Source of the DNA: a virus
Lineage: Duplodnaviria; Heunggongvirae; Uroviricota; Caudoviricetes
Strand: one strand, 5' to 3'
DNA length: 15,067 nucleotides
IMG/VR virus record: IMGVR_UViG_2703718826_000001
Shown here in pieces: positions 1,287 to 13,966 of the stretch (positions are counted from its first letter, which is position 1; each line of letters starts with the position of its first letter). A program made the translations under genes and the position numbers. The notes below the pieces were generated by a model that worked only from the letters and a program-made list of their open reading frames with translations, searched no databases and was not told where the DNA came from.

Positions 1287-2219
1287 ATGGACAACGACAA
1301 AATTGATCAACACAGCGACGAAATTGAAGTTGAGAGCGAAGAAAAAGAGCGCGGCAAAAAAATAGAAATAGATGAAGACCGACTCCCCTCCCGGGCGATG
1401 GCAATTCATGAGCATATCCGCCAGGATGGTGAAAAAGAGCTGGAACGCGACGCAATGGCGCTACTGTGGTCAGCCATTGCGGCGGGTCTGTCGATGGGCG
1501 CTTCGTTACTGGCAAAAGGGATATTTCATGTCGAACTGGAAGGTGTGCCGGGCAGCTTCTTGCTGGAGAAGCTCGGTTATACCTTTGGTTTTATTATCGT
1601 CATTATGGCCCGCCAGCAATTATTTACCGAAAATACCGTGACTGCGGTACTACCCGTCATGCAAAAACCGACAATGAGCAACGTCGGCTTACTTATACGG
1701 TTATGGGGCGTCGTGCTGCTGGGTAATATTCTCGGGACAGGTATTGCGGCGTGGGCATTTGAATATATGCCTATCTTCAATGAAGAAACTCGCGATGCAT
1801 TTGTCAAAATCGGCATGGATGTGATGAAGAACACCCCCAGCGAGATGTTTGCCAACGCGATCATTTCCGGCTGGCTGATCGCCACTATGGTTTGGATGTT
1901 TCCTGCAGCGGGTGCGGCAAAGATTGTGGTGATTATATTGATGACCTGGCTTATTGCCCTGGGTGACACCACCCATATCGTGGTCGGTTCTGTTGAAATC
2001 CTCTATCTGGTGTTTAACGGTACGCTGCACTGGAGCGATTTCATCTGGCCCTTCGCACTACCTACTTTAGCGGGGAACATCTGCGGCGGCACCTTTATCT
2101 TCGCGTTAATGAGTCATGCACAGATTCGTAACGACATGAGCAATAAGCGTAAAGCAGAAGCACGCCAAAAAGCAGAACGTGCGGAAAACATTAAGAAAAA
2201 TTATAAAAACCCGGCATAA
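1287..2219 (+). CDS. yfdC: YfdC, formate/nitrite-transporter-family inner membrane protein
   Basis: 310-aa ORF with multiple hydrophobic segments and a charged N-terminal region; divergent from mlaA and immediately upstream of argW as in E. coli; recognised from memory. Confidence 0.8.
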   Translation: MDNDKIDQHSDEIEVESEEKERGKKIEIDEDRLPSRAMAIHEHIRQDGEKELERDAMALLWSAIAAGLSMGASLLAKGIFHVELEGVPGSFLLEKLGYTFGFIIVIMARQQLFTENTVTAVLPVMQKPTMSNVGLLIRLWGVVLLGNILGTGIAAWAFEYMPIFNEETRDAFVKIGMDVMKNTPSEMFANAIISGWLIATMVWMFPAAGAAKIVVIILMTWLIALGDTTHIVVGSVEILYLVFNGTLHWSDFIWPFALPTLAGNICGGTFIFALMSHAQIRNDMSNKRKAEARQKAERAENIKKNYKNPA

Positions 2220-2294: not shown

Positions 2295-2369
2295 GTCCTC
2301 TTAGTTAAATGGATATAACGAGCCCCTCCTAAGGGCTAATTGCAGGTTCGATTCCTGCAGGGGACACTT
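2295..2369 (+). tRNA. argW: tRNA-Arg (anticodon CCU)
   Basis: Cloverleaf readable by eye: acceptor GTCCTCT pairs with AGGGGAC, anticodon loop CTCCTAA, T-arm GGTTCGATTCC; matches E. coli argW from memory except the last two encoded nt are TT instead of CA (CCA end). Confidence 0.85.
2347..2367 (+). repeat. attL core: 21-bp direct repeat (3' end of argW)
   Basis: TTCGATTCCTGCAGGGGACAC is identical at 2347-2367 and 13946-13966; the first copy is the 3' end of the tRNA gene. Confidence 0.8.
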
Positions 2370-2540: not shown

Positions 2541-3827
2541 ATGAGTACAGATATGGCCATTAATGTGCTTTCCCCCAAACAGATAGAAAACGCCAAGCCG
2601 AAGACCAATGATTACAAACTTACCGATGGAGGGAGTTTGTATCTACTGGTACGAAAGACTGGTGGAAAATACTGGCGTATGAATTATCGTTTTGATGGAA
2701 AACAAGTGACATTGGCATTAGGGGTCTACCCAGATGTCTCACTTGCAACAGCGCGGAAACGGCGTGATGAAGCCAGGCAACTACTAGCCGATGGTCGTGA
2801 TCCTCGCGAAGCAAAGAAACCCAAAAAGGAAGACCCAATTTCCCCCACGTTCGAGAGTGTTGCCAGAGAGTGGCATAGTGGAACGATGGGGCATCCTGAG
2901 TGGAAAGAGATCACCCGTAAAAAAATTCTCCGAGAAATGGAAAACCACCTCTTTCCTGCCATCGGTTCAAAGCCTATCGATACGCTCAAAACCCGTGACT
3001 TGATGCCGATGCTGGTTGAGATGACTGAGAAAGGAATTGGTGCCACAACGAGCCGGGTAAAAACCACTATGACGAGCATCTTCCGTTATGCAGTGCAACG
3101 TGGAATTGTCGATTACAACCCTGCCCACGATCTAAAAGGTGCAATTACGGCCCCCAAAGTACGACATCGCCCCGCACTACCTCTCGAACGTTTACCTGAA
3201 CTGTTAGCGAAAACGAGAAGTTACACGGGAAGACCATTGACTCGCCTAGCAGTTCTCTTTTCCCTGCACACTTTTGTGCGATCCAGCGAACTACGACATG
3301 CCAGATGGGAGGAGATCGACATTGAAAATGGGCTATGGACGATACCAGGACAACGTGAAGAGATCGCAGGGGTTAAATTCTCAGATCGGGGTGCAAAGAT
3401 GGGGGCTGCTCATTATGTCCCGCTATCTAGTCAGGCTATCGGGGTACTGGAGGATATAAGGAAAATCAGTGGTGAATATCTGCTGGTTTTCCCCGGTGAC
3501 AGCAACCCATATAAACCGATGAGCGAAAACACAGTTAATAAAGCACTGCGAACGATGGGTTACGACACTCAAACTGATGTATGCTTGCATGGGTTCAGGG
3601 CGATGGCCTGCTCTGCACTGACCGAATCAGGACTCTGGTCACGCGATGCAGTTGAACGGCAGATGAGTCACCAAGAAAGAAACGAAGTGCGGGCAGCATA
3701 TGTGCATCTTGCGCAGCACATGCAGGAACGCCGCAGAATGATGCAATGGTGGTCTAATTATCTGGAACTAAATAAGGACGAATTTCATGCTCCTTATGAC
3801 TTATCAGGTATTAACATTATCAATTAA
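2541..3827 (+). CDS. P4-type tyrosine integrase (start uncertain: 2493 GTG, 2541 ATG or 2553 ATG)
   Basis: N-terminal AKPK...Y.L.DGGSLYL...KYWRMNYRFDGKQ motif typical of P4-family integrases; C-terminal catalytic-region residues (R in VRSSELRHARWEEID, HGFRAM, AAYVH); located directly 3' of the tRNA; first 48 nt of the ORF overlap the arm-site repeats, so an internal ATG is preferred. Confidence 0.85.
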   Translation: MSTDMAINVLSPKQIENAKPKTNDYKLTDGGSLYLLVRKTGGKYWRMNYRFDGKQVTLALGVYPDVSLATARKRRDEARQLLADGRDPREAKKPKKEDPISPTFESVAREWHSGTMGHPEWKEITRKKILREMENHLFPAIGSKPIDTLKTRDLMPMLVEMTEKGIGATTSRVKTTMTSIFRYAVQRGIVDYNPAHDLKGAITAPKVRHRPALPLERLPELLAKTRSYTGRPLTRLAVLFSLHTFVRSSELRHARWEEIDIENGLWTIPGQREEIAGVKFSDRGAKMGAAHYVPLSSQAIGVLEDIRKISGEYLLVFPGDSNPYKPMSENTVNKALRTMGYDTQTDVCLHGFRAMACSALTESGLWSRDAVERQMSHQERNEVRAAYVHLAQHMQERRRMMQWWSNYLELNKDEFHAPYDLSGINIIN

Positions 3828-3857
3828 ATACTCTTATAATTTAAAACAGAGGTCATA

Positions 3858-4739
3858 ATGCAGCATTCAACAGAGAATGAAACTATATTCTTAGGAAATC
3901 TATGGATTGACAAAAAAATACCACCATTAGAATATTGTTCATTTGAACGCGCTTCAAGACTATTAGAATGCGAGATTGATGATTTATTACACCTATACGA
4001 AATAGGCGCTTTTAATATCGCATTCAAGGCGGATGGACTTGCAGTTAGATTTAATGTTAATTTCCTCAATAAAAATCAGAAAATGGAAATTGACTTAATT
4101 CATCCCGTATTAACTAATCAATCACTAGAGATGGAGTTTTCAACAATATGGTATGACCTTAAAGATGATTCCTTTGAACATTTTGAAAATGGGCTTCAAA
4201 TTATAGGATTTGCCTGTGGTATTTGGTACGCCGATGATATGATAAGTGACATAAAAAATGGATTAGCTATAGATCCAGATTATGAATTCAGGCTTAAACC
4301 GGTAAAAATACGAGATAATGTTTTGATGGCAACGGCCTCATATGAAGGAAATAAGGTCATTGATATTCCATTTGAAGATCTTCTTATCATGCGAAGAGAT
4401 TTAGAGTTAATATGGAAATCAGTAAAAACTGGAATTCCTATGCCAAGTTTACTTACGAAAAGAATTTCATCTGAACCTAAAATCCCCAAGCGATTAAATA
4501 ACACTGCTGAGCATCATGCAAAAAATAGGGAGGGGTTATTAAATGCAGCCATATATATTTTAGCAAAATACCCAAGCGAATGTCGTGGTGAAAGAAAAGA
4601 GATAAGTCCTGAAAAGTGGACTAACGCCATAATTAAACATTTAGGAGAGCTACCTCCAATATTTATCACTAATGAACAAGAAATCTTAAGAAAATTACGA
4701 TTAGCGGTTAATCATGCGGGGTTAAAACAAAAGGGGTAG
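3858..4739 (+). CDS. hypothetical protein (AT-rich orphan cargo gene)
   Basis: 293-aa ORF; markedly AT-rich against GC-rich neighbours; no domain recognised. Confidence 0.6.
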   Translation: MQHSTENETIFLGNLWIDKKIPPLEYCSFERASRLLECEIDDLLHLYEIGAFNIAFKADGLAVRFNVNFLNKNQKMEIDLIHPVLTNQSLEMEFSTIWYDLKDDSFEHFENGLQIIGFACGIWYADDMISDIKNGLAIDPDYEFRLKPVKIRDNVLMATASYEGNKVIDIPFEDLLIMRRDLELIWKSVKTGIPMPSLLTKRISSEPKIPKRLNNTAEHHAKNREGLLNAAIYILAKYPSECRGERKEISPEKWTNAIIKHLGELPPIFITNEQEILRKLRLAVNHAGLKQKG

Positions 4740-4805
4740 ACTGAAACAATCTACAGGTAGAGTTGATTACACTACCTTCACAGCATTTTGATATCCCCAT
4801 AGTAT

Positions 4806-4833
4806 CTGCCGTGTTCATTACATAACACGGCAG
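4806..4833 (+). promoter_or_regulatory. inverted repeat (10-bp arms, 8-nt spacer) just upstream of alpA
   Basis: CTGCCGTGTT 4806-4815 and AACACGGCAG 4824-4833; right arm ends 8 nt before the alpA ATG and overlaps the likely ribosome-binding region. Confidence 0.35.
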
Positions 4834-4841
4834 GTAATTTC

Positions 4842-5057
4842 ATGACATTAAAAACTTATCCTATCACTGGACATGCCCGCCCACGAGCTACTGCTGACTT
4901 TTTGCAAATAAGTACGGTTACTCTCTGGCGCTGGGAAAAGAACAATCCTGAATTTCCCAAATCTATACGCATTTCAAAACGGGTATCTGTTTACGATGCA
5001 CAAGAAATTAGGCAGTGGGTTAAAGCTCAATCAGCAGGATTGGAGGAAGTAGTGTAA
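4842..5057 (+). CDS. alpA: AlpA-family phage regulatory protein (excision regulator, HTH)
   Basis: 71-aa ORF; FLQISTVTLWRWEKNNPEFPKSIRISKRVSVYDAQEIRQWV fits the AlpA/Xis-like pattern (T-I/L-Y/W ... FP.P ... R.V.W ... EI..W). Confidence 0.7.
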   Translation: MTLKTYPITGHARPRATADFLQISTVTLWRWEKNNPEFPKSIRISKRVSVYDAQEIRQWVKAQSAGLEEVV

Positions 5058-5106: not shown

Positions 5107-5301
5107 TCAATTCTTTGGTTCTAAACCTCGGCTTTGTAACTCTTTGCGTAGAATGCGCTTGATCCAAGCCGCTAGCGATTCATCGCCATCCTGCTGTTGT
5201 GCTTGTTCCATCAGTTCACGCAGTTCAGGGTCAAGTCGGAACTGGAATGGCGGATTCCCACGTCTTTCATTTTTGTGTGTTGACACGTCAATTACACCCA
5301 T
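5107..5301 (-). CDS. putative ribbon-helix-helix (Arc/CopG-like) DNA-binding protein
   Basis: 64-aa ORF; PPFQFRLDPELRELMEQ ... SLAAWIKRILRKEL resembles a beta-strand/helix/helix RHH fold; divergent from the downstream small-gene operon; the competing plus-strand ORF 5057-5407 is Ser/Cys-rich and implausible. Confidence 0.5.
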   Translation of the reverse strand: MGVIDVSTHKNERRGNPPFQFRLDPELRELMEQAQQQDGDESLAAWIKRILRKELQSRGLEPKN

Positions 5302-5417: not shown

Positions 5418-5594
5418 ATGGCTAAACAGAAGTGTACCTGGTTATTTGCGGCGATCAACCGCAGTCAACGTAATGCCCGTCCGGTGATGTTAAGGATCAT
5501 CGCAGATAACGAACGATCAGCGCGGCGCAGACTTGCCCCGGACTATGTACTGAGCTTTGCCGGGCGCATTCCCTGCGGAGGTGAACATGCGTAA
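5418..5594 (+). CDS. Icd-like host cell-division inhibitor family small protein (putative)
   Basis: 58-aa ORF from the internal ATG with GAGG upstream; pattern W.FAA..R....RPVML.I.A.NE..ARR.LA.DYVLSFAGRIP recalled as typical of Icd-like proteins in P4-like islands. Confidence 0.5.
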   Translation: MAKQKCTWLFAAINRSQRNARPVMLRIIADNERSARRRLAPDYVLSFAGRIPCGGEHA

Positions 5595-5946
5595 TTATCC
5601 GCACCCCGGCGAACGCTGGCAGCATGAACGTGGCTGGACGGTCACGATTATCCGATTAATAGAAGCCTCGCCCTCTGTGGCGCTGGTTAATCCTGAATTC
5701 AGCTGTGAAGTGCTGATACGTCATGACAGCGACAACCAGCTATCCTCCTGCCCTCTGGCATGGTTTGAACAGCGGTATACGCGCCTGTTTGATGTACCGC
5801 TCTTTAAGCCTGCACCAGCTCCTGCAGGCGGTAGTGGTTCCGGCCCGCTGACACTGCATCCGTCTGTGCTATTTATCCGCTGGCGGGAGCGTAGCATATG
5901 GCGCTCTGCTGAGCCTGACGACGGTCACTATTCAAAGTTTCTCTGA
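5587..5946 (+). CDS. hypothetical protein
   Basis: ATG at 5587 preceded by GGAGG at 5-nt spacing; overlaps the preceding stop by 8 nt; no domain recognised. Confidence 0.5.
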   Translation: MRNYPHPGERWQHERGWTVTIIRLIEASPSVALVNPEFSCEVLIRHDSDNQLSSCPLAWFEQRYTRLFDVPLFKPAPAPAGGSGSGPLTLHPSVLFIRWRERSIWRSAEPDDGHYSKFL

Positions 5947-6262: not shown

Positions 6263-6642
6263 ACCAGCCGCAGGTTTCCATTTTCCCGGCAGAAATGACC
6301 ACCGCGCTTTACCGGCGGGCTATTGCTTCAGCATGGCGGCAGAAAATGCTGAACGAAACTGGCAGTGATCAGTATGGTCCGCACAGCCTGACGGTGGAGC
6401 GTATTGAAATGGCCATTGCGCTGCATATCGAGTGCGTACTGATTAACGAGTACGGCGAAGTGCAGGGCGCCGCTGCCGCGCTGGCACTGCTGACTGACAT
6501 GCTGGAGCCGTCACTGCTGACCGCGCCGCCGGTACTGACCGCGCGCGGCTGTGAAGTGATGGCGGAGATGTACCGCACGCTTCCGGCGGCCTTTGATGAC
6601 TTCTGCAGTACCGGTGTGACGTTGTATGAGGGGGAAGTATGA
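6259..6642 (+). CDS. hypothetical protein
   Basis: 127-aa ORF coupled at both ends by ATGA overlaps (6259-6262 and 6639-6642). Confidence 0.6.
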   Translation: MNQPQVSIFPAEMTTALYRRAIASAWRQKMLNETGSDQYGPHSLTVERIEMAIALHIECVLINEYGEVQGAAAALALLTDMLEPSLLTAPPVLTARGCEVMAEMYRTLPAAFDDFCSTGVTLYEGEV

Positions 6643-9311
6643 CAATACAGACGGTTACGCAGATTTCAGCCGCCGCACGGGGGAAATGGCCCGTTATTCT
6701 GCAGATGCTGCGTATTGATGTACCTGAAAACGGCAGGCACGGTCCCTGCCCGAAATGTGGGGGCAAGGATCGTTTTCGCCTTGATGACCTTGACGGGCGC
6801 GGGACGTGGATCTGCAGCCAGTGTGGCAATGGTGACGGTCTGGATCTGGTTAAGCTCGTAACCGGTTACAGCGTCAGAAAGGCTGCGCAGGAGGTGGCGC
6901 AGGTGCTTAATGTGCCGGATGTGCAGGAACTGCCTGTTAAGCCTGCCAGACAAAAAGCCCCTAAACGCGACATGGGTCTTACCGTGGCGGCGCTGATGAA
7001 AGAGAGCCACACGGGAGAAAGCGCCTATCTGACAGGAAAAGGGTTCGCCGGATACCCGGCCTCTCTGACCGGAAGCGTGCAGCATATCAGCGGTAAGGAT
7101 TTTCCTGCCGGTTCCCTGCTGTTACCACTCACGACCAACACCGGAGCCGTGACCGGTGCACAGCTTATCGCCCCGACGGGTGAAAAAAGCATACTGCCCG
7201 GCAGCACGATGAAAGGCGCGTTTGTGTCGCTCAGCCCGTTACCGTCTGAACCACCGGTACAGGTGGTGATTACCGAAGGTTACGCTACGGCGCTGACGGT
7301 AAGCCAGCTCACTGCCGGATGCGTAGTGGCTGCCATATCTGCGGGCAACCTGCCCAATGTGGCGCAGTCGCTGCGGGCACGCTGGCCTGAGGTAAAAATT
7401 ATCATCGCCGGTGATAACGATTTTCAGGACGGGGGTGAGAATCCCGGCAGAGCCTTTGCTGAACGGGCGGCAAAAGCTGTTGGCGGCTGGATGACGCTGC
7501 CACCAGGAGAGATTAAGGCTGACTGGAATGACTTTCATCGGGAGCACGGTATTACCCGTGCCCGTGAAGCCTTTCGCAACGGTCTGGTACTGTGCGGGGA
7601 AGGCCGCACGCAACTGCCGCACGGGTTCCGTCTTACCCAGGAATATCTCTGGTATGAAAAGCAGGTACAGCGCAACGGTGAGACGGAGATCCAGAACGTC
7701 AAAATATGCAGCCCGCTGCGCGTGACGGCAATCACCTGCGATGCCGATGGCGGTAACTTCGGACGACTGCTGGAATGGGAAGATACGTGGGGTGAGTGTC
7801 GCCGCTGGGCGATGCCGATGGAAATGCTGAGCGGCAGTGGTGAGGAACTGCGCCGGGTACTGCTGGTTAACGGGCTGTCTTATATCAGCACCACCGGTGA
7901 GGCACGCGCACGCCTGATGGAATATATCTCACTGTGTAAACCGGAACGCCGCGTGACCTGCGTCAGTCGTACTGGCTGGCATGGTCAGGTTTACGTCCTG
8001 CAGGATGAGGTCAGCGGTGAAGGTGCAGAGGGTGTCATTCTCCAGACCACTTCCGTGCAGGGGCGTGATTTCCGCGTGTCGGGCACAACAGAGGAATGGC
8101 GGGAGCATGTATCCCGCTACTGTACCGGCAACTCCCGCGTGGCATTTGCTGTCAGCCTGGCCTTTGCTGCACCACTGTTACGGCTGGTTGGTATGGACGG
8201 CGGCGGCTACCACCTCAAAGGGGAATCGACAGACGGTAAGACCACCACCATGAAAGCGGCAACCTCCGTCTGCGGCGGGCCTGACTACTGGCAGACATGG
8301 CGGGCCACCGGCAACGCGCTGGAGGGATGCGCCAGCCGCCGCAACGATGCTGCCATGATGCTTGATGAGATCCGGGAAGTTGACGGACGCGAGGCAGGCA
8401 ATATCGCCTACATGCTGGCAAACGGTCAGGGCAAGGGCCGTGCCGGTACGGACGGTGAGCTGCGTACCCGTAAGCAGTGGCGCCTGTTGTTCTTTTCAAC
8501 TGGCGAGTTGTCTCTGACCGAACATGCGGCAAAGGCCGGTGAGCGTACTTTTGCCGGGATGGAAGTCAGGATGATCCAGATCCCCAGCGATTCCGGGAAG
8601 TTTGGCGTTTTTGAGGAGCTGCACGGCTTCGACAGCGGCAAGGCTCTGGCAGAGCATCTTGAATGGGCCACGTCCTGCTACTACGGTTCGCCGTTCCGGG
8701 AGTGGCTGAAAGCACTGACCGCTGATCTTAACGGACTAACGGCACAGGCAAAATCGCTGATGAAGGAATATGCTGCCGCCCTGACTCCTAAAGATGCAGG
8801 CAATCAGGTGGGCCGGGCTGTGAACCGCTTTGCACTGGTGGCGATGGCAGGTGAACTGGCAACCCGTCTGGGTATCACCGGCTGGCCTGAGGGTGAAGCA
8901 CTGCGGGCAACCCGCGTCTGCCTGAACGCATGGCTGAAAGATCGCGGGCACACCGCCAATCAGGAAGATATCGCCGCACTGGAGCAGGTTCGCAGTTTCT
9001 TTACCGCGAATCAGTACAGCCGCTTTGCAGACTGGTATGACGAGCGCAACCGCCCCGGCAATATGGTGGGCTGGCGCAGGGTGGAGAAAGGCAGTACCGC
9101 GCAGGGCACGGAAGCTGTCACTACGTTCTATGTCATGCCGTCCGGCTGGAAAGAAATCTGCAGGGGATTTGACCCGCGCAAGGTGGCGCGTCTGTGCGTA
9201 GATCGTGGATACCTGCTGCCCTCCACTGATGGCAAACTCCAGACAACCATTCGCCCGCCAGAGATGAATCCCCGCAGGCTCTATGTCTTCAACAGCGAGG
9301 TGCCGGGTTAA
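6639..9311 (+). CDS. P4 alpha-like primase-helicase (zinc-ribbon, Toprim, DUF927/D5-like NTPase)
   Basis: 890 aa; N-terminal CPKCGG...CSQCG zinc ribbon; Toprim-like ITEGYATA and AGDND; Walker A KGESTDGKTT near 8221-8247; GC-rich. Confidence 0.9.
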   Translation: MTIQTVTQISAAARGKWPVILQMLRIDVPENGRHGPCPKCGGKDRFRLDDLDGRGTWICSQCGNGDGLDLVKLVTGYSVRKAAQEVAQVLNVPDVQELPVKPARQKAPKRDMGLTVAALMKESHTGESAYLTGKGFAGYPASLTGSVQHISGKDFPAGSLLLPLTTNTGAVTGAQLIAPTGEKSILPGSTMKGAFVSLSPLPSEPPVQVVITEGYATALTVSQLTAGCVVAAISAGNLPNVAQSLRARWPEVKIIIAGDNDFQDGGENPGRAFAERAAKAVGGWMTLPPGEIKADWNDFHREHGITRAREAFRNGLVLCGEGRTQLPHGFRLTQEYLWYEKQVQRNGETEIQNVKICSPLRVTAITCDADGGNFGRLLEWEDTWGECRRWAMPMEMLSGSGEELRRVLLVNGLSYISTTGEARARLMEYISLCKPERRVTCVSRTGWHGQVYVLQDEVSGEGAEGVILQTTSVQGRDFRVSGTTEEWREHVSRYCTGNSRVAFAVSLAFAAPLLRLVGMDGGGYHLKGESTDGKTTTMKAATSVCGGPDYWQTWRATGNALEGCASRRNDAAMMLDEIREVDGREAGNIAYMLANGQGKGRAGTDGELRTRKQWRLLFFSTGELSLTEHAAKAGERTFAGMEVRMIQIPSDSGKFGVFEELHGFDSGKALAEHLEWATSCYYGSPFREWLKALTADLNGLTAQAKSLMKEYAAALTPKDAGNQVGRAVNRFALVAMAGELATRLGITGWPEGEALRATRVCLNAWLKDRGHTANQEDIAALEQVRSFFTANQYSRFADWYDERNRPGNMVGWRRVEKGSTAQGTEAVTTFYVMPSGWKEICRGFDPRKVARLCVDRGYLLPSTDGKLQTTIRPPEMNPRRLYVFNSEVPG

Positions 9312-9711: not shown

Positions 9712-10455
9712 ATGAACAACACCGCAGTGAATAACAACCTTTCCACTTTTCCGGCTGTAACGCAGCGGGCACTGGAAACCATGAACACAGCCAGAAACGC
9801 ATGGCTTGAAGCACGTCGTCAGCAGAAAGCGGCAGCGGATAATATTGCGACAATCCGCCAGCGTCGCGCTGAAATGGAAGCCACGACGAACACACTGAAT
9901 GAGGAGTGGCGCACGCTGTTTCGTGAAAGTCAGGGCGTGGTCTCAAAGGAAATGAAAAAACTGCGCACGGAAATTGCGCTGGGACGAGAAACGCTTGAGG
10001 ATTTTGATGAGCTGCTGGCGGCTCAGGAAAGCGAAAATGCACTTTTGCCGCAGAAAGCTGCGGAATTAGCCGGAAAGTATATCCACGCGCATAACATTCT
10101 TGTGGATATTCGCGCAAAACAAATCTGGGAAGATTTTATGCAGTCGCATGGAAAAGCGCTTATTCAGACGCTGAGCCTGCTTAAATCCACAATGGGCCGG
10201 GAAGCCAGTGCCGTTGTGGGTGTGGTGAATTCAGTTAATGACCCGGACACAGTGCTGAAAGACTTTATTCATAAACATATCACCAGACCGGCTCTGGCTA
10301 ACGATGCGATGCCTGAACAGGACCCGGTGTTTAAACTGGCGGGAGTTGCCCCGGATTATGCGGCGCGTCTGGATTTCAGTAATCAACTCTCTCCGGCAGC
10401 TATGCATAAAATAAAGGTTCGTCAGGAACTTGCTGAGAAGGAGAAAGCAGTATGA
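9712..10455 (+). CDS. Sid-like putative capsid size-determination (external scaffold) protein
   Basis: 247 aa, Ala/Glu/Lys/Leu-rich and presumably helical; size and position (first gene of the late operon, before the Psu-like gene) match P4 Sid; N-terminus resembles the Psu N-terminus as I recall it. Confidence 0.55.
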   Translation: MNNTAVNNNLSTFPAVTQRALETMNTARNAWLEARRQQKAAADNIATIRQRRAEMEATTNTLNEEWRTLFRESQGVVSKEMKKLRTEIALGRETLEDFDELLAAQESENALLPQKAAELAGKYIHAHNILVDIRAKQIWEDFMQSHGKALIQTLSLLKSTMGREASAVVGVVNSVNDPDTVLKDFIHKHITRPALANDAMPEQDPVFKLAGVAPDYAARLDFSNQLSPAAMHKIKVRQELAEKEKAV

Positions 10456-11003
10456 CGGCCCGAGGCACACCTGACCAGGCACTTACCAGTTTTCGGAATG
10501 CCCGTATTCTGTGGGCCGGACATAGTGAGAGCCGAAAAGCCGTTGAACAACAGATAACATCTCTCCTCGCTGCCACAGAAAAACCAGCAGATTATGCCCG
10601 ACAGCTCGAATTACTGCGGGAACGTCTGGATGTGCTGAAATGGCAAATTAACTGTGCTGCTCGGGAATGCATTTACTCGCAGCATTTATTGATGGAGGCC
10701 TGCACAGAAGCTGCTCTCAGCAATTTTATGCAGGCGAATGGGGCAGCCCTGACATCTGCACTGGCTCCGTTCCTGAAGGGGCGCGGAGGGGTTGACGTTG
10801 CGTCCCGTATATTACGCAGTGCTCTGGTTCGCCAGCTGGCAATAACACCGCCTGAAATTGCCGGGGATTATCGTGAGATCCTGGATGAATCCGGTTTGAT
10901 GCCAGACCCCGGGATGATTCGTGATTGCCAGGGCTCTTACACCCCGGCACAACATCTGCGTTTTCAGCAACGCCTGAATGACATTAACGATATACAGGAG
11001 TGA
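10452..11003 (+). CDS. psu: Psu-like polarity suppression / capsid decoration protein
   Basis: 183 aa; motifs KWQIN, FMQANGAALTSALAP and YTPAQ match my recollection of P4 Psu; AAGGAG upstream; start overlaps the previous stop (ATGA). Confidence 0.65.
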   Translation: MTARGTPDQALTSFRNARILWAGHSESRKAVEQQITSLLAATEKPADYARQLELLRERLDVLKWQINCAARECIYSQHLLMEACTEAALSNFMQANGAALTSALAPFLKGRGGVDVASRILRSALVRQLAITPPEIAGDYREILDESGLMPDPGMIRDCQGSYTPAQHLRFQQRLNDINDIQE

Positions 11004-11008
11004 TATTA

Positions 11009-11281
11009 ATGGCACTTAAATGTCCGGAATGCGGTACAGTTGCACACGCCAGAACAGCAGCCTATGAAGCTCCGTCAGTTAAACGCTCGTGGTATCAGTG
11101 CCAGAATCTGGAATGTTCCTGCACATTTACGGCACTGGAGAGTGTGGATAAGATAATCATGAAACCCCGGCGCAATGAACAGGAACCAGACAAATCACAA
11201 ACCCCGGTAAAACAACAGCAAACGCTCAATCGCTATGGCTCCGCGTCAAAACTGTCAAGCCGTCAGCAGATTCCTGTCTAA
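11009..11281 (+). CDS. Ogr/Delta-family zinc-finger late transcription activator
   Basis: CPECG...AHARTAAY...YQCQNLECSCTF...ESV closely resembles P2 Ogr (CPLC...AHARTSRY...YHQCQNVNCSATF...ESV); AGGAG 8 nt upstream of the ATG at 11009. Confidence 0.85.
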   Translation: MALKCPECGTVAHARTAAYEAPSVKRSWYQCQNLECSCTFTALESVDKIIMKPRRNEQEPDKSQTPVKQQQTLNRYGSASKLSSRQQIPV

Positions 11282-11766: not shown

Positions 11767-12615
11767 ATGTCAAATAAAGTTGATGTTTTTTTGAGCCGAG
11801 TTAGCCATGTATCACAGTTTGTATTGGTGGCATTTGCTATTTTTGGATATTTTTATACAGTAAGACCAATTTACCAAAAGGAACTTTTATCAGAAGACAT
11901 TGCAAAAAAAGAAGTTGAATTAAATAAATTAAAAACTGCAATGGAAAACTCCCAAAAATTTATAGAGAATAATAAAATCTTACGAAAAGAATTGGAGGGA
12001 AGCATTGCCAAACTTGATTTACAATACAAAGAATCAGAAGAAAAATTAAATTCAATAAATTCTGAACTAAGAAAAACTTTAAATGAACTAAATAAACAAA
12101 AGACCATTGCCAAAAGAGCGGTCAATGCAAACAACAAGAATCTTGAATCTGTTTTCTGGGAGAATTTTTCGGGGCTAGTTGGAGTAGTTTATATTTCTAA
12201 GAGCACAGATTTTGTGAACAATACACTGGGTGACGCCAAAACAGCCTATAATACTCCTAGTAATTTATATATATCTCCTTATGATGCAATTAATGAAGCA
12301 TTAAAAAATGGCAATCATAACTTTATCTCAAGTTCAGAAAATGTCCCTGAAAATATCCGCAACAAAATTCTAGCAAAGATCCGTCGCGCTATTGAAAAAA
12401 ATAAGATTTCATTAACAAAAAAACCTATCGGTTTTGATGAAAAAATTAATAGTCTGATAAAAACTATAGAGTCAACTAAGTTACGCAAAAATGAAAACGA
12501 AATAATGAAAAATAACACTGCAGAAAGAGAACTATCATCTTATATTTTCCTGATAAATGGTCAATCAAGAATCCGCGCCATGGATTTCTTAAAAGACATT
12601 CAACATTTAGACTAA
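11767..12615 (+). CDS. hypothetical membrane-anchored coiled-coil protein (cargo gene A, candidate defence component)
   Basis: 282 aa; AGAGG 4 nt upstream of ATG; one N-terminal hydrophobic helix (VSQFVLVAFAIFGYFYTV) then a Lys/Glu/Asn-rich heptad-like region; strongly AT-rich; no known domain recognised. Confidence 0.75.
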   Translation: MSNKVDVFLSRVSHVSQFVLVAFAIFGYFYTVRPIYQKELLSEDIAKKEVELNKLKTAMENSQKFIENNKILRKELEGSIAKLDLQYKESEEKLNSINSELRKTLNELNKQKTIAKRAVNANNKNLESVFWENFSGLVGVVYISKSTDFVNNTLGDAKTAYNTPSNLYISPYDAINEALKNGNHNFISSSENVPENIRNKILAKIRRAIEKNKISLTKKPIGFDEKINSLIKTIESTKLRKNENEIMKNNTAERELSSYIFLINGQSRIRAMDFLKDIQHLD

Positions 12616-12631
12616 TATTGGATATCTTATA

Positions 12632-13336
12632 ATGAATACTAATACTAAATTTGATTTATGGTTGATTAGAGTAAGTTACATTGCCCAAGTTGGATTGTTT
12701 TTTTTGACAACCTTTACAATATTTTACACAGTAATTCCGATATACCAAAATGCAAATCTGCAGGAATCAATAGCAAAAAAAGAAATCGAATATAAACAAT
12801 TACAAGACAAAGAAAAAACTCTATATTTAAAGTTAAGAAAGGAATATTCAAGAAAATATGTTGTTGATGCAATCTCCCAATGTTCTCCAACAGAAATACT
12901 TATGCGTCAACCATCTGAAGATGACAGTAAAAAATCACATGATGTAAGAATGAAGGAATTAAAAACATTTTTAAACAAAGATATAACCAGTTGCTTTGAA
13001 AAAACTTTTTATAGCAACCCTTACATTAAGGAATTAAGAGACACTGATCAACAAAATATTCTTGTTAAAATTAAAAATTTATCCCCCTCTATAACTAAAC
13101 TACATGAAAAATATAAAGCAGAATTTGATGACGATAGCAAGTTATTGAATACTGGAAAAGAAAAATCGACAAGATTAAAAGAGGTGGAAGATTATTTAAT
13201 AGGAATAGGAGGTTACACAGAAAACAGCAAAAAGGATTTTGAAAACTCATACATAGAATCTGGAGCATATGACTTGGTTGTAAGGTATGGTTTTGAAGTC
13301 AACGATCTATTTTCCAAAACCATCAGAGACAATTAA
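12632..13336 (+). CDS. hypothetical membrane-anchored protein, N-terminal paralogue of gene A (cargo gene B)
   Basis: 234 aa; begins 16 bp after gene A; N-terminal helix (IAQVGLFFLTTFTIFYTV) and the FYTV-PIYQ ... IAKKE motif shared with gene A; divergent C-terminus. Confidence 0.75.
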   Translation: MNTNTKFDLWLIRVSYIAQVGLFFLTTFTIFYTVIPIYQNANLQESIAKKEIEYKQLQDKEKTLYLKLRKEYSRKYVVDAISQCSPTEILMRQPSEDDSKKSHDVRMKELKTFLNKDITSCFEKTFYSNPYIKELRDTDQQNILVKIKNLSPSITKLHEKYKAEFDDDSKLLNTGKEKSTRLKEVEDYLIGIGGYTENSKKDFENSYIESGAYDLVVRYGFEVNDLFSKTIRDN

Positions 13337-13945: not shown

Positions 13946-13966
13946 TTCGATTCCTGCAGGGGACAC
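13946..13966 (+). repeat. attR core: 21-bp direct repeat (partial tRNA 3' end); probably also the attL of the next island
   Basis: Identical to 2347-2367; here followed by CA (13967-13968), i.e. the canonical tRNA CCA end. Confidence 0.8.

Follow-up and report, generated by a model that had tools for sequence, protein, structure and literature searches.

A conserved gene family between the integrase gene and alpA in satellites with P4-type integrases

Here we describe gene X, a 293-aa open reading frame (ORF) that lies between the integrase gene int and alpA in a P4-like satellite, and that very probably belongs to a conserved satellite family of fixed position and is not foreign cargo. The gene is carried on a 15,067-nt stretch of DNA (IMG/VR virus record IMGVR_UViG_2703718826_000001; hereafter, the window), which is a segment of an enterobacterial chromosome holding the satellite as an island at tRNA-Arg(CCU). 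A preliminary description of the window had placed the 293-aa ORF correctly between int and alpA, and had read it as an orphan and as a foreign gene in a second cargo slot. We find that X is a backbone part of the int–alpA zone in P4-type-integrase satellites, both P4-like and Gram-negative phage-inducible chromosomal island (PICI)-like.

Position, age and composition of X

A HMMER profile search against 1.84 billion representatives (clusters at 50% identity) recovered 566 cluster representatives related to X at E ≤ 1e-3 and 176 at E ≤ 1e-10, nearly all of them 270–340 aa long, so that the gene is not an orphan. A word-indexed search returned only 14 relatives, and a profile scan of genome contigs with a shallow X alignment gave 3 loci. 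All source records of the family that were examined bear the name 'hypothetical protein', no match to X was present among INPHARED phages, and no paper describing the family was found in the literature.

The survey of gene position covered 15 distinct types of element, and the named genera among their hosts number at least eight. The hosts were E. coli, Salmonella, Pantoea, Yersinia, Serratia, Klebsiella, Morganella, Photorhabdus, Pectobacterium/Intestinirhabdus and metagenome or viral contigs. The elements were P4-like, PICI-like with a D5 or DUF927 primase, or capsid-encoding, and occupied three or more sites (tRNA-Arg, beside yicC, beside der and elsewhere). An X-family member was found directly 3′ of a P4-type integrase in 14 of the 15 types and directly 5′ of alpA in 14 of the 15, always on the shared strand, with 13–96 nt between int and X where the two adjoin. 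In the element L023, X adjoins alpA although the integrase lies 4 kb away. Comparison of L036 with L012/L037 (IMG/VR contigs) showed 98% identity for X and 100% for alpA next to an integrase of another type, 54% identical to that of the L024 type, indicating an integrase exchange with its breakpoint between int and X.

The family is absent from some P4-like/PICI satellites, namely EcCICFT073, EcCIMP1 and CP4-57. In EcCICFT073, alpA appears to follow int directly, as judged from the placement of 'ORF3' after alpA (PMC6092414), and EcCIMP1 carries a small unrelated gene in the int–alpA slot by its paper's description. EcCIMP1_002 and EcCICFT073 c1499/c1500 were considered as X homologs and rejected on the papers' own descriptions. 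Conservation in all relatives, which the preliminary description had named as grounds for giving up its cargo reading, thus holds for this lineage and does not extend to all P4-like/PICI satellites.

X is a real gene under purifying selection, because the ratio of non-synonymous to synonymous substitution rates (dN/dS, or ω) is 0.12–0.23 in comparisons with relatives for which dS is not saturated; at its own base composition, a run of 293 codons would lack a stop with a probability of 1.8e-11. The ratios were calculated by the Nei–Gojobori method against Salmonella L026 and the metagenome relative L027, after comparisons with distant relatives had proved unusable because dS was saturated. X gave a dS of 0.34–0.48, int 0.25–0.26 (ω 0.08–0.11), the primase gene 0.23–0.36 (ω 0.06) and alpA, in L026 only, 0.27 (ω 0.07). 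Since its dS is similar to, or a little higher than, the values of these backbone genes, X has co-diverged with the backbone and is about equally old, under purifying selection 2–3 times weaker than theirs.

The preliminary description was right that X is compositionally unlike its neighbours, with a GC content of 0.338 (0.255 at third codon positions, GC3) against 0.481 for int, 0.421 for alpA, 0.590 for the primase gene and 0.465 for the whole island. Low GC, however, is found throughout the family (0.34–0.44 in every element, against 0.42–0.54 in the flanks), and is therefore no mark of recent import here.

Among E. coli genomes, int, X and alpA occur as one block in 63, and every copy of this int found in E. 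coli came with at least the 5′ portion of X, the small number of shorter matches being truncated ones. Occasional inactivation of X was observed: IS1 is inserted in the gene in E. coli CE0021a, X is cut after ~525 nt in ETEC1720 and ETEC1739, where the element itself appears cut, and the SW071611 copy is also truncated. The same X ortholog is present in the window, in E. coli PM4 and a15, in Salmonella L026 and in L027 (metagenome), and Pantoea relatives also have X. By contrast, the cargo after the delta gene consists of two AT-rich ORFs (282 and 234 aa) in the window and in Salmonella L026, a YecA-family protein in PM4, a 398-aa ORF in a15, Mrr_cat plus HATPase_c in L027 and DUF4062 in UTME-8, in which the X slot holds a distant homolog, X′. 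Among close relatives the int–alpA slot never contains an unrelated gene. Because the post-delta region is swapped and X is kept, the known type of hotspot sits at 11767–13336 and not at X; the synteny comparison of the int–alpA interval that had been proposed with the preliminary description thus reveals a single family, stable in close relatives. In L027 alpA was not called although its start region is conserved, and it may be a pseudogene; X is intact there (ω 0.12). Pseudogenes of alpA are frequent in P4-like elements (PMC8628076).

Three-part architecture and diversification of X

X is a non-enzymatic, soluble protein of three parts, in which the type of the C-terminal part is independent of the int and alpA types. 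The AlphaFold model, based on a 131-sequence alignment, reached a predicted local distance difference test (pLDDT) score of 86 and a predicted template modelling (pTM) score of 0.67, and its only structural matches were to winged helix–turn–helix (wHTH) domains of the MerR/Xis/AlpA type. The β1–α1–turn–α2–wing topology that marks this superfamily at the fold level is present in the model. The wHTH is the most widely conserved part of the family, with conserved residues Y26, R31, A32, C38, D42, H45 and G50. It is split by an acidic β-rich insertion with a conserved G-L-W at residues 121–123, whose size variation accounts for the range of family lengths from 197 to 380 aa. Members of 197 aa keep the wHTH, the helix that closes it and the C-terminal module, which identifies the β-domain as an insertion of variable size. 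In the C-terminal module, N-R-E, C and W are invariant and P-x-E is nearly so; a search for fusion partners of the module found none, only fragments. Apparent members consisting of the C-terminus alone were rejected, as they have the full architecture with tiny insertions or miscalled starts.

Across the family, the net charge is −2 for the wHTH and −9 for the insertion (medians) and +2 for the C-terminus; in X itself, residues 20–172 carry a net −12 and the linker plus C-terminal third +8. Together with the lack of a transmembrane segment in X, these values bear out the soluble protein with acidic patches and a basic C-terminal third that had been portrayed from the sequence. No catalytic-type motif or invariant polar cluster is conserved in the family. 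A metal site formed by C27, C38, H45 and C242 was rejected, since these positions do not co-vary and C27 alternates with Y/F, and a DNA-mimic reading was rejected in view of the ordinary overall pI of 5.8. The wHTH + WYL + WCX architecture of the BrxR/CapW regulators is not that of X.

Searches of domain collections agreed with the earlier statement that X has no recognizable domain. X had no match in Pfam, NCBIfam or PADLOC (0 at E ≤ 10) and only noise in PHROGs. The HTH_17, Phage_AlpA and MerR profiles gave 0 matches to X at E ≤ 10 and none at E ≤ 0.01 among the 131 aligned family members, none of which matches any Pfam or NCBIfam family, RhuM of Pfam included. Sequence profiles of the Protein Data Bank yielded nothing, either for the whole family or for the C-terminal module alone. 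Within PHROGs, phrog_7144 (function unassigned) was matched by 34 of the 131 members. A PADLOC search for a defence match, suggested in the preliminary description, was negative for the window protein, and in PADLOC-DB 2.0 the 131 members gave only marginal PDC-S05 matches (best E 4.6e-4, one or two members per model). Alignment of the X wHTH with the AlpA alignment by hhalign was in register and weak (P 0.001, probability 20%). Where AlpA carries W, R and K, the X wHTH shows D, L and H, and D41, D42 and H45 of X fall where AlpA has T, W, R and K; R31 and H45 are conserved in the X wHTH.

X diversifies rapidly. In the UTME-8 sister element, which uses the same att site, int is 76–77% and alpA 86% identical to those of the window, whereas X′ is only 23–24% identical to X; both nevertheless belong to the same family (hhalign probability 100%, E 9e-41), and DNA homology between the two elements resumes at 4804, after X. 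In the yicC clade, int is 86–91% and X 31–61% identical. Conversely, the last ~80 residues of X are 56–64% identical between elements whose int and alpA are only ~25% identical. The type of the C-terminal module correlates with neither int (rho 0.14) nor alpA (rho 0.09), compared with a rho of 0.69 between int and alpA. Between more distant elements, only remote homologs take the place of X. Within the protein, ω is about 1 for residues 1–19 in one comparison, 0.09–0.24 for the wHTH, 0.16–0.31 for the middle, which is the fastest-evolving folded part, 0.4–0.6 for the linker and 0.02–0.07 for the C-terminus; dN is 0.35 for the insertion against 0.09 for the C-terminus.

The island and the control signals around X

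The exact att repeats bound an 11.6-kb, P4-sized island, which is a P4-like satellite at tRNA-Arg(CCU) flanked by mlaA, yfdC and the tRNA gene (Table 1). Its gene order is int, X, alpA, small ORFs including an Icd-like gene, primase, two Psu-fold genes, Ogr/Delta and two AT-rich ORFs. This differs from the canonical P4 order int-hotspot-psu-delta-sid-alpA-eps-alpha (PMC8628076), in which X, as had been remarked before, has no counterpart. The layout int-X-alpA-...-alpha-(sid-like)-psu-delta-cargo is uncommon among P4-like elements. Homologs of int carry Arm-DNA-bind_3, Phage_int_M and Phage_integrase domains.

Table 1. Features of the window and of gene X (coordinates are positions in the window; X residues are given where they define a part of the protein)
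Feature	Coordinates	Strand	Description
mlaA	238-993		chromosomal flank
yfdC	1287-2219		chromosomal flank
tRNA-Arg(CCU)	2295-2367		flanks the island
attL	2347..2367	.	21-bp core TTCGATTCCTGCAGGGGACAC at the 3′ end of tRNA-Arg(CCU); ARAGORN and Rfam tRNA; exact direct repeat with 13946-13966
int	2553..3827	+	P4-type tyrosine integrase, 424 aa from ATG; ORF opens at GTG 2493; RefSeq: tyrosine-type recombinase/integrase
Promoter-like site of X	3811..3840	+	sigma70-like, TTAACA-18 nt-TATAAT, 11/12; overlaps int stop codon; consensus match only
Ribosome-binding site (RBS) of X	3848-3852		AGAGG
Gene X	3858..4739	+	293 aa, ATG start; member of an undescribed satellite family
X wHTH, AlpA/Xis/MerR type	3915..4067	+	residues 20-70; net charge -3; beta-alpha-turn-alpha-wing unit at 26-69
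X variable acidic beta-rich insertion	4068..4373	+	residues 71-172; net charge -9; up to residue 178 in the model
X 'D-L-x-I-x-R' strand and helix closing the wHTH	4374..4442	+	residues 173-195; helix 179-191 in the model
X disordered linker			residues ~200-214, from the model
X basic four-helix C-terminal module	4500..4736	+	residues 215-293; helices 215-287 in the model
Hairpin 1	4754..4778	+	CAGGTAGAGT-tgatt-ACACTACCTT; 15 nt past X stop codon; folding prediction
Promoter-like site before alpA	4777..4805	+	weak, TTCACA-17-TAGTAT, 9/12; would start alpA transcripts at hairpin 2; consensus match only
Hairpin 2	4806..4833	+	perfect 10-bp inverted repeat CTGCCGTGTT-8 nt-AACACGGCAG; ends 8 nt before alpA ATG
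alpA	4842..5057	+	AlpA/Vis-family wHTH regulator/excisionase, 71 aa; PF05930 in homologs
YlcI/YnfO-family ORF	5107-5301	-	small
Icd-like ORF	about 5420-5600	+	cell-division inhibitor-like, downstream of alpA; RefSeq annotation of an identical element
Primase	6639-9311		TOPRIM/DUF927
First Psu-fold gene	9712-10455		tandem, overlapping the next; Pfam Psu E 1.8e-9; probably a Sid-like capsid-size factor
Second Psu-fold gene	10452-11003		Pfam Psu E 1.5e-44
Ogr/Delta	11000-11281
Variable cargo region	11767..13336	+	between delta and attR; two AT-rich paralogous ORFs (11767-12615, 12632-13336), 282 + 234 aa, GC 0.29-0.30
attR	13946..13966	.	second copy of the 21-bp att core

Names given in RefSeq to the first Psu-fold gene vary ('phage polarity suppression protein', 'septation initiation protein', 'phage capsid morphogenesis protein'). 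The two ORFs after delta have no Pfam or PADLOC match and are paralogous over an N-terminal hydrophobic segment and the start of a coiled-coil-like region (49% identity over 53 aa). The pair is a candidate two-gene, membrane-anchored defence system. The zone after alpA is the expected place of a P4-type RNA immunity; Rfam gave no match there, and the tRNA was its sole match in the window.

The signals around X are predictions from consensus matches or from folding. In five close relatives (dS 0.02–0.5 elsewhere), the −10 box, RBS and ATG of X are invariant and the −35 box is nearly so. The spacer between X and alpA measures 90–113 nt in 11 of 11 elements and keeps a layout of hairpin, weak −10-like box and hairpin; the −10-like boxes stand at the corresponding place in the other elements. 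The half-site of hairpin 1, GGTA(C/G)AGT, recurs in six of eight elements that share this type of X C-terminal module, variants being GGTAAAGT in L010 and GGTACTG in L002, and it persists even between elements with unrelated int and alpA and with saturated silent sites. Relative to L012, the stem shows a compensatory G-C/C-G change, and G·U-compatible changes occur in L009 and L012. Hairpin 1 probably marks the 3′ end of the X transcript or terminates it. As an operator, GGTA(C/G)AGT was rejected, because it occurs only once near X.

A strong 8–13-bp hairpin ends 1–8 nt before the alpA start in 11 of 11 elements, the counterparts of hairpin 2 being those of L002, L006, L009, L010, L012, L013, L019, L022, L023 and L024. 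The Shine–Dalgarno (SD) sequence lies at the junction of loop and 3′ arm in most of them and partly in the 3′ arm in the window element. The hairpin sequence follows the alpA type and is unrelated between types, with the structure kept; hairpin 2 could be a site of AlpA autoregulation or an element of translational or antitermination control. Farther upstream, a conserved sequence of ~40 nt, CGACGGGG(C/A)GAAAAGCGG..CCTTACCGCCTG, is found 40–80 nt 5′ of X in L006, L009, L012, L019 and L023, and it is kept in L023 although the integrase is 4 kb away. This sequence may be a cis element tied to X, or else what is left of an int 3′ region.

Possible roles of X and comparison with known systems

The position and variation of X allow us to propose, tentatively, that it is a constitutively expressed sensor/regulator that gates AlpA-dependent induction. 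The quiescent island would produce X, using in this element the near-consensus promoter of the gene itself, and X would act as a sensor or adaptor upstream of AlpA-dependent induction. The variable insertion would recognize a protein of the helper phage or of a competitor phage, and the winged helix and C-terminal module would form a constant output acting on the alpA control region (the terminator-like hairpin, the weak promoter and the SD hairpin), on the AlpA protein or on some conserved factor of the host. X would then be a functional analogue, with another fold, of Stl, the sensor-repressor of Staphylococcus aureus pathogenicity islands (SaPIs). A role coupled to alpA is supported by X abutting alpA in L023 and by the retention of X and alpA together across the int exchange in L036. 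In a bolder version, the missing sensor for helper phages in Gram-negative satellites would be X, a Stl-like switch on the AlpA/Xis fold whose hypervariable insertion binds a helper protein and whose C-terminal module holds alpA off until the helper arrives, by way of the hairpin–promoter–hairpin spacer or of a conserved host factor; this appears unlikely to us.

Several observations weigh against a regulatory role. The wHTH is acidic (family median −2), which makes DNA binding doubtful, and no repeated operator-like motif was found near X. The domain types of X correlate only weakly with the alpA type (rho 0.09–0.46), the strong X promoter is seen only in the lineage of the window, and X is co-directional with its supposed target alpA, which is unusual for a regulator. 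EcCICFT073 is helper-inducible without X, if alpA does follow int there. Finally, RNA-based immunity downstream of alpA is known in P4-like/PICI elements (PMC10111431), so that a protein repressor is not required.

Other roles account for some of the same data. X might be a one-gene, non-enzymatic system against phages or for interference with the helper, a conserved 'moron' that the resting satellite expresses, its acidic domain binding a phage protein and its C-terminal module blocking a conserved host or phage process; we regard this as rather unlikely. Non-enzymatic interference proteins are typical of satellites, as exemplified by Psu/Sid, Ppi/Cpm of SaPIs and Rpp of PICIs. The AT-rich composition unlike that of the flanks, the strong promoter of its own and the 3′ hairpin give X a moron-like layout (promoter and hairpin being predicted from consensus matches only), and a fast middle domain with allelic replacement between sister elements is what an arms race would produce. 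Defence genes are also abundant in satellites, and of the unannotated genes of P4 many were protective when tested (PMC13586616); the few weak matches in the X family are to PDC-S05, a RhuM-domain candidate that was protective in one study (PMC12881386). These points are offset by the lack of an effector domain, transmembrane segment or catalytic motif in X, by the negative PADLOC result for X and the marginal nature of the family matches (E ≥ 4.6e-4, at most two members per model, no Pfam RhuM), and by the slot itself, which never holds unrelated systems in close relatives and lies outside the P4 defence hotspots mapped in thousands of elements. Presence/absence polymorphism, as expected of a moron, was not seen: no close relative lacks X, and only truncations and one IS1 insertion were found. 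Interference would also leave unexplained the fixed coupling to alpA across very different satellites.

It is improbable that X is an accessory recombination or establishment factor, that is, an enlarged Xis-like protein that shapes the attP/attL/attR complexes or controls int expression and, alongside AlpA, biases integration versus excision. Its fold and position would fit: within the 'integration zone', X comes directly after int in 14 of the 15 types of element, and it likely shares a transcript with int wherever X shows no separate promoter. Directionality factors, however, normally co-evolve with the integrase and att arms, and X tracks int poorly (rho 0.14 for the C-terminal module), the same C-terminal module occurring with 25%-identical integrases and X being exchanged between 76%-identical ones. 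In L023 and L036, X goes with alpA and not with int; moreover, the winged helix is acidic, and the excisionase/regulator role is already filled by AlpA. Very improbable, and largely refuted for this lineage, is the original view that X is foreign, came in recently and occupies a second cargo slot, open to free exchange, beside the integrase. Low GC, the lack of an annotated domain, recombination breakpoints on the X flanks and unrelated genes in the int–alpA interval of other lineages (yfjH in CP4-57, EcCIMP1_002) would suit such an origin. It is contradicted by a dS comparable to that of the backbone, by the same ortholog being present in 63 genomes of E. coli and also in relatives from Salmonella and Pantoea, by AT-richness common to the whole family and by one family filling the slot in 15 element types, with the actual swap site after delta.

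The integration zone of Gram-negative satellites has been published as int plus AlpA only (PMC10111431), and both the switching of alpA by the helper phage and the existence of a Gram-negative PICI repressor are stated open questions (PMC6092414, PMC11773190). X is a third recurrent, previously undescribed component of this zone, with a fold that, judged from the model, is largely new, and its location is the one expected of a gene that senses for or regulates alpA. Should X be a regulator, it offers a direct experimental handle on the specificity of satellite induction; were it a helper sensor, its allelic diversity would set which phages induce which satellite. If it is instead an interference or defence protein, X would represent a new non-enzymatic type missed by current defence finders. 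Either way, the result corrects an annotation error that equates an AT-rich gene beside the integrase with foreign cargo.

Among known systems, the P4/P2 defence hotspots (Rousset et al. 2022, PMC9122126; PMC13586616) resemble the X locus in having an AT-rich, domainless gene by the integrase that diversifies rapidly. The mapped hotspots, however, lie between int and psu-delta-sid and between the primase gene and att (PMC13586616), their equivalent here is the region at 11767–13336 after delta, and the swapping for unrelated genes between near-identical cores that characterizes them is not seen for X. YfjH of the E. coli K-12 element CP4-57 occupies the same interval, between intA and alpA of a P4-type-integrase element, and is likewise an uncharacterized protein, of similar size (318 aa), but its gene lies on the other strand and it has no detectable homology to X; as an X homolog it was rejected (hhalign probability 0.6%). 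CbpM, a MerR fold that does not bind DNA, is a 100-aa chaperone modulator paired with CbpA, with no similarity to X and with neither the insertion nor the C-terminal module.

The SaPI repressor Stl and Rpr of Gram-positive PICIs share with X a place by int in a satellite, an N-terminal HTH-type domain and highly divergent regions, a putative sensor in X, that differ between islands; expression in the resting state, inferred for X, and induction coupled to a helper protein would be further likenesses (PMC6092414), the hypervariable insertion being the one feature of X in keeping with such coupling. They differ in that their fold and sequence are unrelated to those of X and in that some Gram-negative satellites do without X. 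Stl is also divergent from the operon it represses, whereas X is co-directional with int and alpA and has no repeated operator-like motif beside it. The fold of the X wHTH resembles that of the AlpA/Vis/Xis excisionase-type winged-helix proteins (PF05930, HTH_17), from which X is set apart by the lack of profile membership, a fourfold larger size, a wing bearing an insertion of ~100–180 residues, an extra conserved C-terminal module and a recognition helix that is acidic in X and basic in AlpA.

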